Shown piece after piece: positions 6,176 to 12,537 of a stretch of 64,000 nt of DNA. The position numbers were made by a program, and so were the translations under genes. Origin of the DNA: Escherichia coli. Lineage in GTDB: Bacteria > Pseudomonadota > Gammaproteobacteria > Enterobacterales > Enterobacteriaceae. The DNA lies in NCBI RefSeq assembly GCF_024223415.1, contig NZ_CP100500.1; one strand, given 5' to 3'. The stretch's first letter is position 1. The number at the start of each line of letters is the position of its first letter. The notes beneath the pieces are model-generated. The model searched no databases and was not told where the DNA came from. It saw only the letters and a list, made by a program, of their open reading frames with translations.

Positions 6176-7090
6176 TTATTCATAGATAAAAGTGACACCA
6201 ATGACTGACTGGACGGTTCCGGCTGAAACTTTGTTTCCTGTTTGTCCATAGGTTGCGCTTAAACCCAGAGGTACTTTGCTTTTATTTACTGTCCCCAGGG
6301 AGATATTTTCTCCCGTAGCCAGTATTTTTCCATTACGCATCAGAGAGACACCCACTCCCGATGCTTTTGTTGCATCAGGTGCTGTGTTAGCAAACACTTG
6401 TCGGGCACTGTCAGTGGTGGCACCCGAAAGATAAAATGAGAGCTTTTGTTCGCTTGAGCAATATACGCCAAGGGGTATTTCTGCGCTTCCAGGAAAGTCC
6501 GGGAGATTCACGGTGACATTACGACTATCAACAGTGCAGCCGCCTGTTGGCATAACAACACTGTTATTTGAAATAATATTCCACGTAAAATTACGAGGAT
6601 TTCCGCTTCCTAACGTGGCAATTTTATACATATGAATACGGGCAATAGCTTCCCCGGCTTTTATGACAACTCCACCGGCCGCCCCGACTGGGGTAATATA
6701 GAGTTTTAACGGTAATGGCATCGGTGTCTTATCACCAATATCCAATACGTTGGTATTTGTCGTCAACGGGAAGGGGTAGGTCACACTATTCCAGTACAGC
6801 GATCCTTTATATGACTGTAGGGAGCCTGCGAAAGCTGAGCCTTGTACCAGGTTTATATGATCAGTATCGTACCAGCCGCCGTAATCATTCCAGCAACTTA
6901 TATGCTGAGACAAGTCTACAACCAGATTCTGTCCCGGTTGTATTACAGGGTCGAGATTAACATAAACAGAGGTTGTACCTGCTCCAATACTTGACCCGCC
7001 ATCGACATTACAACTGAAGGCAAAAACTTTGCCTGCCATTAATAGAAGATAAATACCGAACAGGACCTTTATACTGATTGTTTTACCCAT
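6176..7090 (-). CDS. ydeQ: fimbrial tip adhesin, FimH-like two-domain protein (304 aa)
   Basis: Signal peptide, lectin plus pilin domain architecture; last gene of the chaperone-usher operon. Confidence 0.85.
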
Positions 7091-7149
7091 GATATATCCT
7101 AAGGTTAAAAAATTGATTTAAAAAGAAGGCTAAGAAAATCGAATCGACG

Positions 7150-7653
7150 TTATTGCCAGGTGTAGATCACATTGATTAGCGCCTCGATCGTTCCCTGGCT
7201 TGCGTTTCCATTCACCGTGATAGCTCTTGCCTTAAGTGGAAACTGTGCATTACGAGTGATCTCATCAACAATAACCATTTTGCTATCGCCATTTTTTAAC
7301 GTCGCATCCTGGTCATCCCTCAGCTCTATCTGAATATTTTCGGCAGTACCTTCATTTTTGTAATAACCCGTATTGTCAGTTGAACCTGTCACGATTGCCG
7401 TCACTGCACTTGTTTCAGCCGGACAATCGGTTAATGACAAAGTAATATTGTGCCAGCCAGATGCAGAACCAGGTTGTTGCAGATTGCGCGTATAAAGATC
7501 CCCGAGATTAACGTTAGCTTCTTTGGTTTGAATAGTGCAGGGTTTAGCGACTACCCGACCATTAACAGTGATAGTGACATCGGCGGCCTGGAGAGTTGCT
7601 GTGAATAACGCGCAAAACGTAGCTAACAGGAACCTCTTGTGAAGTCTTTTCAT
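7150..7653 (-). CDS. ydeR: minor fimbrial subunit (167 aa)
   Basis: Signal peptide, pilin-like size and C-terminal beta-strand motif; operon context. Confidence 0.85.
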   Translation of the reverse strand: MKRLHKRFLLATFCALFTATLQAADVTITVNGRVVAKPCTIQTKEANVNLGDLYTRNLQQPGSASGWHNITLSLTDCPAETSAVTAIVTGSTDNTGYYKNEGTAENIQIELRDDQDATLKNGDSKMVIVDEITRNAQFPLKARAITVNGNASQGTIEALINVIYTWQ

Positions 7654-7665
7654 ATCTGACTCTGA

Positions 7666-8196
7666 TTATTGAAATTCAAGGGTAAAGGTTGCCGAAGCCC
7701 TCACCAGTCCCGGATTGACGGACTTCTGAGTTGACTTCAGACGAGCGGAGTAAGGCAAAATATTGTTATGTTCTGGTACCAGTGGGATCCACTGCATCCC
7801 GGCATGAAGGTCATTCAGTTTCACCGGACGCATATTTCCGTCCAGTATTTCTATACCTAAACCAGAGGCCGTATTGCTTCCCTCATCCAGTTTCAACAGA
7901 GTATTATTTTCTGCATCCTCAATACCGTTAAATGCAACCCGAACCCCCGTTGTCCCTTTGCTGCATTCACTTAACGTAATCTGAAAAGGGACGGCTGGAC
8001 TTGTGCTACCGGTCGTTGGAAATTGTCTGGCACTGTTTTTTTGGAGATCTACGGTAAAATTAAGCGAATCCGATGAGACTGTGCAGCCATAATCGAGGAC
8101 GCGCCCGCTAATTTTAATAACGCTATCTGCGGATAAAGCAGAATAGGTGGTTAACCCCAGACATAAACCGAGGAAAATAACGTTATTGTATTTCAT
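7666..8196 (-). CDS. ydeS: minor fimbrial subunit (176 aa)
   Basis: Signal peptide, pilin-like; operon context. Confidence 0.85.
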   Translation of the reverse strand: MKYNNVIFLGLCLGLTTYSALSADSVIKISGRVLDYGCTVSSDSLNFTVDLQKNSARQFPTTGSTSPAVPFQITLSECSKGTTGVRVAFNGIEDAENNTLLKLDEGSNTASGLGIEILDGNMRPVKLNDLHAGMQWIPLVPEHNNILPYSARLKSTQKSVNPGLVRASATFTLEFQ

Positions 8197-8209
8197 AATC
8201 TATTGTTCC

Positions 8210-10861: not shown

Positions 10862-10902
10862 TATTAATTCCGATTGAGTTTATTATTAATTAGGTCACTG
10901 GC

Positions 10903-11622
10903 TTACTGCATGGTTGCCTTAATACGCGGAGTTAATGCGCCGTAATCATTGATCGTCTGAAAACTGATATCCCCGGTGGCAGCATGCGGGATATCCACCG
11001 ATACTTCACCTTTTGGCGGCACCATGGTGTTTGGGAGATTGCTATTTCCTGCTTTCATATTTGTTACGGTAATGAAGTAGGGCGTTGGATTAATAAGAGT
11101 GAGTTTGCTACCGCTGCGACGAAACCGAAGCATTGCAGGCGCTTCTTCAGGTGCCATTGCCAGGTTCGTGGGGCGATAAAACATTTTTATGCGGCTAATA
11201 ATTGCCAGCTGTAATGTATTCTCATTCTTCTGGTCTTTTTCCATAGCAGGAATAGCTTTAACATTCACCCAGAACAGGCTTTCACGGTCGCCTGGTAACT
11301 GATGATTAGTGGCGTTGATTATCCGCAGCGTATTCTCTTTTTTACCTTGCATGGAAAAAAGCGGTGGGGTAATGACAAACTGGGTGTCTTTTTGGTCACC
11401 TGCATTTTCTATCCATGACTGAATGAGATAGACACTGGCAGGATCATTATTCGTGACAGGCAATAAAACCTGTTTCTGGTTTGCCGGATAAATTACCCGC
11501 GTCGCACCCAGTGCGACAGCTGCGTTGGCAACGGTGCTATGGCAAGCAAAGAGCAATAAAAGTAACACTGTCGCCATAAAGGAAATAGAGTAGGGGGTAC
11601 GCGTAGTTTGCATCTGATGCAT
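10903..11622 (-). CDS. periplasmic fimbrial chaperone, PapD/FimC family (about 239 aa)
   Basis: Signal peptide and size typical of pilus chaperones; between major subunit and usher. Confidence 0.85.
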   Translation of the reverse strand: MHQMQTTRTPYSISFMATVLLLLLFACHSTVANAAVALGATRVIYPANQKQVLLPVTNNDPASVYLIQSWIENAGDQKDTQFVITPPLFSMQGKKENTLRIINATNHQLPGDRESLFWVNVKAIPAMEKDQKNENTLQLAIISRIKMFYRPTNLAMAPEEAPAMLRFRRSGSKLTLINPTPYFITVTNMKAGNSNLPNTMVPPKGEVSVDIPHAATGDISFQTINDYGALTPRIKATMQ

Positions 11623-11903
11623 TCTCCATGTGTTAAGAGGATAAGCGGGAAAACCGTTACATCAGACAATCGGTAAATGTTGCTAATACATTGGCGAGTC
11701 GCCGGGTTTCCAGACTTAATGCGTTTGTAATAAATGTTGGTTCTCTTTTAATAGGAAAACCTTGCTAAAAAGTAAATATTTTTAATAACAGTAAGTTTAA
11801 CTACTATTGTTTATTGATAGTTTAGATATTATGTGATTTTTCATAGCGCTCCAAATACAAACCACTCCTCATTAATAATGAGATTCACATTGGTGAATTG
11901 CTC

Positions 11904-11932
11904 GGGTGTGTGTAGCCATGCCACACACACCC
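11904..11932 (-). other. perfect 10-bp-stem hairpin in the major-subunit/chaperone intercistronic region (possible attenuator or mRNA stabiliser)
   Basis: gggtgtgtgt-agccatgcc-acacacaccc seen directly; lies 42 nt downstream of the major-subunit stop on the transcribed strand. Confidence 0.45.
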
Positions 11933-11973
11933 TGTTTCAATTTCAGATGACGTATAGCCACCTTAAGATTGAA

Positions 11974-12537
11974 TTATAGATATTGAACTTTGAAGGTCGC
12001 ATCTGCGTTTGCAGTACCAGCTACGGACTGCCCGAGTGCAATATAACGAGCCTGGAACGGCAGTATATTCGTGCCATCAATCAAGTCAGTTTTAGCGCTA
12101 AAAGTGGCACCATCAAGTATTAATACCTCACCCGTACGGTCCAAAATTTGGATACCGACATTTTGGGCAGAGCCTGCCGCTGAACTCTGCAGCGCTAACG
12201 TATCGTCATTACTGGTGACAGTAGTACCCAGGAATGCAACAGCTGCATTATTGGAAACATTGGTATCACAATCATTCAGCTTGATATTGAAGCCAACGGC
12301 GGAGCTGAGGTCACCCGCTTTAGCCAGGCGAGAAGAACGAACCTGACCCAGCTCAACCGTTTGGTTCATTGATTCGGAATCAATCGCACAAGCGGCATTT
12401 ACCACTTCACCTTTAAAATGAATAACACCGCCATTAACAGTGGTCGTTACTGATTCATCACCCTCGGCTGCGCTTACCGCAGCAGACGACATCGCCAACA
12501 CAGAAACGACAATCATACCAACATGTTTGAGTTTCAT
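11974..12537 (-). CDS. major fimbrial subunit, FimA-like (187 aa)
   Basis: Start placed at internal ATG 12537 ([23 protein letters not shown]…); type 1 pilin-like; first gene of operon. Confidence 0.8.

Follow-up and report, generated by a model that had tools for sequence, protein, structure and literature searches.

Chaperone-usher pili are assembled from subunits that are exported by the Sec pathway and capped by a PapD-type chaperone, and that are joined by donor-strand exchange at the usher, for the F9 (Fml) pilus of Escherichia coli in the order adhesin, FimG-like subunit, FimF-like subunit and then hundreds of copies of the major subunit FmlA. We describe here the F9 operon at positions 6176-12537 of a 64,000-nucleotide stretch of E. 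coli contig NZ_CP100500.1 (hereafter, the window), together with a stem-loop that directly follows its major-subunit gene, fmlA. F9 operons nearly identical to this one have been published as contributing to biofilm formation, chronic urinary tract infection and adherence to plant surfaces.

F9 has been published as specific to E. coli and Shigella, with the intact f9 operon in 60% of 42 genomes, 61% of the ECOR collection and 80% of a urosepsis collection (PMC3966885). The transcription start site (TSS) of f9, as mapped by rapid amplification of cDNA 5' ends (5'-RACE), is a G that lies 251 nt before the start codon (Wurpel et al. 2014, PMC3966885); the published promoter consists of –10 CATAAT and –35 TAGTCG hexamers separated by 18 bp, is bound by H-NS and is expressed at 20°C, and transcription of such near-identical operons is H-NS-silenced at 37°C and relieved at ~20–28°C (PMC3966885). 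The ligands described are Gal-beta1-3-GalNAc (Thomsen-Friedenreich, or TF, antigen) for FmlH/F9 (PMC5866590), Gal-beta1-3-GlcNAc (PMC3966885) and galactosylated plant xyloglucan (PMC7766294). In other chaperone-usher operons, stem-loops after the pilin gene have been credited with an excess of pilin over the assembly machinery (PMC3373541), and differential mRNA decay is documented for papBA and CFA/I (PMC5927463).

Taken as a whole, the locus is very probably best explained as a complete chromosomal F9 (Fml; ydeQRST-locus) chaperone-usher pilus operon, which is an already known operon in its common intact form. It comprises six co-oriented minus-strand genes, in the order major subunit, chaperone, usher, a pair of minor subunits and FimH-like adhesin. 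The initial annotation, made from the sequence of the window, had called all six intact and of F9/Fml type, and both calls held: the six open reading frames (ORFs) contain no internal stops, have full-length Pfam matches and carry no pseudogene call from the Prokaryotic Genome Annotation Pipeline (PGAP); the usher and the chaperone are free of frameshifts and stops, and the adhesin has a full lectin domain. The identity as F9 follows from the position between ydeP and yneL/hipBA, from 97–99.6% protein identity to the F9 of O157:H7 and sequence type 131 (ST131), and from an adhesin matching FmlH at 158 of 160 residues. The strains compared by protein were an O157:H7 genome (98.7–99.6% identity over the six proteins), an ST131 genome (97.0–98.4%) and the UTI89 alleles of the major subunit, chaperone and adhesin (97.4–98.4%).

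A 7,051-bp query (positions 5900-12950) was 100% identical to E. coli SCU-316, which came from a rectal swab of a healthy student, and PGAP marked none of the six genes of that identical DNA as a pseudogene. In SCU-316 the operon is flanked by ydeO, safA and ydeP on one side and by a truncated helix-turn-helix (HTH) gene, hipA, hipB and an ECSE_1600-family autotransporter gene on the other; the same neighbourhood is annotated in K-12 as ydeQRST/yneL/hipAB, and the flanks published for f9, from ydeP to hipBA, are those seen here (PMC3966885). Of 5,426 complete E. coli genomes, 5,361 matched the query at least partly, and 3,593 (66%) contained 80% or more of its length. The intact operon is accordingly the majority state in E. 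coli, and because about 66% of complete genomes hold it, it does not set this strain apart. When one genome per bacterial species was scanned, no chaperone exceeded 70% identity outside E. coli, bar one stray contig, which fits the published restriction of F9 to E. coli and Shigella. That contig (JARKOR010000214.1, 25 kb), from a Saccharibacteria metagenome-assembled genome (MAG) labelled 'Candidatus Nanosynbacter sp.', encodes an F9 chaperone 100% identical to that of E. coli and also carries the fmlA hairpin; it is, almost certainly, a piece of E. coli DNA that was wrongly binned with the MAG. In the E. coli genome search, records typed as plasmids matched the operon in seven places and the hairpin region in four.

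The receptor class of the adhesin could be approached through the described ligand pocket. The FmlH binding loops span residues 10-15, 44-53 and 132-142, and galactose is contacted directly by F1, D53, K132 and N140, with Y46 and R142 adding affinity (Kalas et al., PMC5866590). The adhesin has a full-length match to PF09160 FimH_man-bind (1-145/145, E = 7e-77) and a C-terminal pilin domain, and it aligns end to end with full-length FimH (5mts, residues 9-304, E = 2e-81). Its residues 25-184 matched the FmlH lectin domain in the PDB (6aow and 10 further entries; 5lne) with E = 2.6e-106 and 158/160 identities. When the lectin domain was aligned with the FmlH pocket, as had been proposed at the outset, F1, Y46, D53, K132, N140, R142 and all three loops were unchanged; the differences from crystallised FmlH are N78S and V124A alone, both outside the binding loops. 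Of the five alleles compared, only this one has S78 and A124; UTI89, ST131, O157:H7 and K-12 all have N78 and V124. The earlier view that receptor specificity could not be read from sequence was therefore too cautious, every ligand-contact residue and loop being identical. Because of this identity, we infer with good confidence that the receptor class is terminal beta-galactosides, and the adhesin of this strain is expected to share with UTI89 FmlH both the galactosides that it binds and those that inhibit it.

We further analyzed the region after fmlA, where a perfect 10-bp-stem hairpin had been noted at 11904..11932. This hairpin was recovered as GGGTGTGTGT...ACACACACCC; read on the minus strand (11932-11904), it is GGGTGTGTGTGGC-ATG-GCTACACACACCC, with 13 pairs including one G·U and a folding energy of –22.8 kcal/mol. 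The 96-nt region that includes it and a smaller stem-loop at 11963-11945 folded at –41 kcal/mol, compared with –20.3 ± 2.9 kcal/mol for shuffled sequences (z = –7.1), and none of 200 shuffles was as good. Each genome has a single copy of the hairpin, as does the window, and a REP-like (repetitive extragenic palindromic) repeated element was accordingly rejected. For the smaller stem-loop that precedes it, B2 alleles turn one G·U pair into A-U, a weak piece of evidence.

Across eight alleles, the stem of the main hairpin varies at a single position, minus-strand 11911, which is A in the window, G in six of the seven others and T in the N96 allele; in RNA these variants give U-A, U·G and U·U, respectively. 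Those with G comprise the five further E. coli genomes read besides N96 and the mis-binned MAG contig. The exact 51-nt version of the window was found in 36 genomes alone and the B2 version alone in 1,074; the 'perfect' Watson-Crick stem is a rare allele. Changing A to G at 11911 shifts the sense fold from –22.8 to –22.4 kcal/mol and the antisense fold from –18.5 to –14.6 kcal/mol. The G variant thus keeps the sense fold and weakens the antisense fold, which suggests that the strand that matters is that of the sense transcript. These values bear on the proposal that the inverted repeat does its work not in the sense mRNA but in an antisense transcript or in DNA, as the site of a dimeric regulator or as a cruciform- or Z-DNA-prone element. 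Such a role would agree with the perfect 10-bp repeat of the window allele, with alternating purine-pyrimidine tracts and with a location at the edge of an AT-rich, H-NS-type spacer. However, every sampled allele other than that of the window breaks the DNA palindrome, the common G destabilizes the antisense fold while leaving the sense fold nearly unchanged, and a consensus scan singled out no promoter-like site for an antisense transcript. We accordingly regard a role in DNA or in an antisense transcript as improbable.

The N96 allele, the most divergent one, allows the conservation of the hairpin to be set against that of its surroundings. In this comparison, identity is 75–80% at third codon positions of the flanking genes, 73–76% in the middle of the spacer between fmlA and the chaperone gene and 90% over the spacer's first 80 nt, and the hairpin differs at one of its 29 nt. 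The spacer's middle thus evolves at about the neutral rate, and the hairpin appears better conserved than the neighbouring neutral sequence, as judged from this one divergent allele.

By analogy with the post-pilin stem-loops described in other operons, we lean, if only slightly, toward the reading that the hairpin, acting in the sense mRNA, shields the 3' end and/or partly attenuates transcription and so gives an excess of FmlA. Situated 41 nt downstream of fmlA, the stem-loop would act as a barrier to 3' exonucleases and/or as a partial attenuator of transcription; the fmlA message would then outlast or outnumber that of the chaperone, usher and tip subunits and so set the stoichiometry of rod subunit to machinery. 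The initial annotation had proposed an mRNA stability element as in pap and fim operons; the stable sense stem-loop and its agreement with a known post-pilin pattern stand, and a role in stability is plausible only.

Several observations weigh against this reading. Within E. coli the F9 hairpin lacks two-sided compensatory changes, showing a one-sided U-A to U·G change and one U·U, and the N96 allele tolerates this U·U mismatch in the stem. The chaperone scan gave no F9 orthologue outside E. coli, which leaves no other species in which covariation of the hairpin could be sought. No U-tract follows the stem, the downstream sequence reading GAGCAAUUCACC... / GAGCAATTCACCAATGTGAA, and a scan for intrinsic terminators does not report the hairpin, which is not a canonical intrinsic terminator. 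The terms 'stem-loop' and 'intergenic' are absent from the main paper on F9 regulation (PMC3966885), and we found nothing published on the element. The same lack of two-sided changes, with one variable stem position, together with the missing U-tract, the lack of an Rfam family, the U·U mismatch and the confinement of F9 to E. coli, which makes sequence conservation weak evidence, would favour the view that the hairpin is a palindrome of no function, perhaps left by a microsatellite-like (TG)n/(CA)n tract and retained only because the alleles of E. coli are young, with stoichiometry set by translation efficiency alone. We consider such a palindrome possible and clearly less probable than a barrier or attenuator in the sense mRNA, since it does not account for a regional z of –7.1 reached by none of the 200 shuffles, for a hairpin altered at one of 29 nt in the most divergent allele, beside a far more variable spacer and third codon positions, for a frequent A/G polymorphism that keeps pairing in the sense RNA only, or for the hairpin, different in sequence and with compensatory changes, that paralogous operons show at this position.

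These paralogous operons were surveyed as 72 non-identical loci from other Enterobacterales, for each of which the best hairpin in the 90 nt that follow the stop codon was taken. The median energy of the best hairpin after the major-subunit gene was –16.6 kcal/mol, compared with –12.6 kcal/mol for shuffled sequences and –11.0 kcal/mol after the chaperone gene (both P ~ 1e-12). A further point against the barrier or attenuator is that the best hairpin after the usher gene (90 nt past the stop codon, 72 loci) was equally strong, with a median of –17.6 kcal/mol, so that this control was not clean; we therefore placed weight on the shuffle control and on covariation in the fimA-type loci, not on the contrast with the region after the usher. 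In 44 fimA-type loci, the consensus hairpin is GGGCC-AGGAW-GGCCC, in which two of the five pairs show double changes from GC to AU. These comparisons suggest that a structured element directly 3' of the pilin gene is a conserved positional feature of the clade; the F9 hairpin itself is unrelated in sequence to the fimA-type one and has a much longer stem (13 vs 5 bp). Type-1-like operons (L004-L079 in our locus set, e.g. L004:6290-6364) from Raoultella, Klebsiella, Citrobacter, Kluyvera, Serratia and others were seen to carry a conserved two-hairpin module after the major-subunit stop codon, in which a small GC(A/G)GGA(A/T)GC hairpin is followed by GGGCC-AGGAW-GGCCC, also without a U-tract.

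The spacer after fmlA hosts both the hairpin and the translation-initiation region of the chaperone gene; its length had been given as 351 bp, which holds for the longest-ORF chaperone start, the RefSeq start giving 360 bp. The slot that the F9 spacer takes up is filled in most related operons by a fimI-like gene, placed after the pilin gene and before the chaperone gene, and this arrangement is what would favour the view that the spacer is a decayed fimI-like gene and the operon a degraded seven-gene fim-type cluster instead of a native six-gene one. However, when the spacer was compared by blastx with every ORF of 78 related loci, no match was better than E = 3, and blastx and blastn against these loci yielded only noise, with no similarity to FimI-like or other proteins; a fimI remnant was rejected on these grounds. 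The ORFs of the spacer are all shorter than 60 aa, a six-gene clone from CFT073 (pF9 = c1931-c1936) makes pili (PMC3966885) and other relatives (e.g. L018, L034 and L048) also lack fimI. Decay from a seven-gene cluster is therefore very improbable. No Rfam match to the spacer was found in a scan of positions 5500-13500 (E ≤ 1); the only match in that interval, AdoCbl-II on the opposite strand within the fmlA coding region, scored 21 bits against a gathering threshold of 36.5 and is due to chance. A consensus scan, weak either way, found no internal promoter on the minus strand for the chaperone and usher genes. It is also conceivable, and in our view unlikely, that the stem-loop and the 360-nt AT-rich spacer constitute a regulatory module of their own, for example a temperature- or H-NS-sensitive checkpoint within the operon that determines if transcription and translation proceed beyond fmlA to the chaperone and usher genes. 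If so, the rare A at 11911, giving U-A in place of U·G, would be a tuning variant; no such F9 module has been described. The positions of all features are listed in Table 1.

Table 1. Features of the F9 operon and its surroundings in the window (–, minus strand)
Feature	Position	Strand	Details
fmlH / ydeQ, two-domain tip adhesin	6176..7090	–	304 aa; signal peptide 1-24, lectin domain mature 1-160, pilin domain
ydeR, FimG-like minor/adaptor subunit	7150..7653	–	167 aa; PF00419 Fimbrial; 98.8% identical to O157:H7
ydeS, FimF-like minor/adaptor subunit	7666..8196	–	176 aa; PF00419 E = 6e-22; 98.9% identical to O157:H7
Full-length outer-membrane usher	8210..10861	–	883 aa; 99.2% identical to O157:H7 usher, 0 stops
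Periplasmic chaperone	10903..11613	–	236 aa from RefSeq start, WP_001195165.1; longest ORF 10903-11622
Non-coding spacer, major subunit to chaperone	11614..11973	–	360 bp, 36% GC, AT-rich; no ORF of at least 60 aa
Stem-loop in sense transcript	11904..11932	–	13-bp stem, 3-nt loop, no U-tract; 41 nt after major-subunit stop codon
Smaller upstream stem-loop	11945..11963	–	7 bp, AGGUGGC/GUCAUCU, 10 nt after stop codon; in minimum free energy and centroid folds
fmlA, F9 major subunit	11974..12537	–	187 aa; PF00419 E = 5e-31
5' untranslated region (UTR) of f9 transcript, 251 nt	12538..12788	–	G at 12788 is the published TSS position, 251 nt before ATG at 12537
f9 sigma-70 promoter	12795..12824	–	–35 TAGTCA, 18-bp spacer, –10 CATAAT; also picked up independently by consensus scan
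AraC-type regulator remnant (yneL / ECs2114-like), C-terminal HTH only	12971..13240	–	RefSeq: helix-turn-helix domain-containing protein, incomplete, N-terminus missing
Interval present here, deleted in K-12-type genomes	9437..12715	.	3,279 bp; blastn vs MG1655 and EC590 breaks at 9436, 12716

The domain content of the remaining genes agrees with their assignments and with a chaperone-usher operon of the FimH-type, gamma-1-like class. FmlA is 99.5% identical to the O157:H7 protein and 98.4% identical to the UTI89/ST131 allele. The usher matches PF00577 Usher over 1-549/549 (E = 1e-199), PapC_N over 1-146/146 and PapC_C over 1-66/66, and RefSeq annotates the identical sequence as intact; the chaperone has both Ig-like domains (PapD_N, 2-125/126, E = 8e-40; PapD_C, 3-62/63, E = 5e-12). 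For the chaperone, the start at 11613 was preferred over that at 11622 on account of the RefSeq choice and a GGAG motif 10 nt before the ATG. Intergenic gaps, listed from the adhesin to the major subunit, are 59, 12, 13, 41 and 360 (or 351) bp. RefSeq names vary: the first minor-subunit gene appears as ydeR and in some genomes as 'fimG: type 1 fimbrial minor subunit FimG', and the second as ydeS or fimF. A terminator scan found no canonical intrinsic terminator after the adhesin gene, where the region fold has z = –1.7. All that we observed there is an inverted repeat of two GC-rich 9-bp arms, TGCGCGGAT...ATCCGCGCA, separated by ~40 nt (6076-6133, minus strand); an AT-rich stretch lies between it and the ydeP promoter region.

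The mapped f9 promoter and TSS can be recognized by sequence in the window. The –35 hexamer is TAGTCA in the window, O157 and K-12 and TAGTCG in B2 alleles. The GC content of the promoter and leader region, 33–40%, fits targeting by H-NS. We infer that the strain should be able to assemble the F9 pilus under conditions of ~20–28°C or relief from H-NS; the silence of F9 in standard culture at 37°C (PMC3966885) counts against this. EvgA-inducing conditions had also been suggested for observing piliation; the published control is by H-NS and temperature, and a link to EvgA is unsupported in the F9 literature (PMC3966885, PMC7766294). Its sole basis was the adjacency of the operon to the EvgA-regulated ydeP and safA-ydeO, and we rejected it. 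The AraC-type remnant upstream corresponds to yneL, a pseudogene in K-12, where a further 124 bp (13181-13304) within the remnant are missing, and to ECs2114, a cryptic AraC-like coding sequence (PMC7766294); no regulatory role has been demonstrated for this remnant in the published F9 work (PMC3966885, PMC7766294).

The statement of the initial annotation that K-12 keeps only ydeQRS and a truncated usher proved accurate, MG1655 having ydeQ, ydeR, ydeS and a truncated ydeT, the latter being the C-terminal remnant of the full-length usher. The K-12-type deletion removes the first 475 usher codons, the chaperone and major-subunit genes and 178 nt of the 5' UTR. It spares the f9 promoter (12795-12824) and the first 73 nt of the leader, which are joined to the truncated usher ydeT; K-12 could thus still transcribe ydeT-ydeS-ydeR-ydeQ from the native H-NS-controlled promoter. 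A different deletion was observed in a record labelled E. coli UTI89 (NZ_CP062985.1; L084 in our locus set), where ~1.9 kb equivalent to window positions 7447-9342 are absent; this takes the C-terminus of the usher, ydeS and part of ydeR, with both genes annotated as pseudogenes. The deletion is unexpected because FmlH function was demonstrated in UTI89, and it may reflect a laboratory derivative, a different isolate or an assembly problem.

F9/Fml is already characterised: its adhesin structures are solved, its ligands and its control through H-NS and temperature are known and drug leads exist. A further intact copy is of little value for discovery. The practical value lies in annotation, namely the full set from fmlA to fmlH, for which PGAP gives the generic labels 'fimA' (for fmlA) and 'ydeQ'. 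The stem-loop after fmlA offers a cheap target for the study of subunit stoichiometry in chaperone-usher systems, as an element of a known kind.

Compared with the described F9/Fml operons (CFT073 c1931-c1936; UTI89 fml; O157:H7 Sakai ECs2107-ECs2113; and the K-12 ydeQRST remnant), the operon of the window has the same locus, six genes and gene order, the same promoter, TSS and leader, 97–99.6% protein identity and an identical adhesin pocket. The differences are allelic only: S78/A124 in the adhesin, a –35 of TAGTCA and not the TAGTCG of B2, and A at 11911 and not the common G. Type 1 fimbriae (fimAICDFGH) share the architecture, with a FimA-like rod, a PapD-type chaperone, a FimD-type usher, FimF/FimG-like adaptors and a FimH-like adhesin, and a stem-loop follows the major-subunit gene in both. 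In contrast to type 1, F9 lacks a fimI gene and has a 360-bp non-coding spacer in that position, no fimB/fimE invertible switch is evident adjoining F9, which is controlled through H-NS and temperature, and the sugars bound by FmlH are galactosides and not mannose (PMC5866590). As with papA and CFA/I, the polycistronic chaperone-usher operon of F9 has a stable stem-loop directly 3' of its major pilin gene (PMC3373541, PMC5927463), although the F9 element, known from sequence alone and with neither an RNase E site nor a papB-like upstream cistron identified, differs from these in lacking a U-tract.

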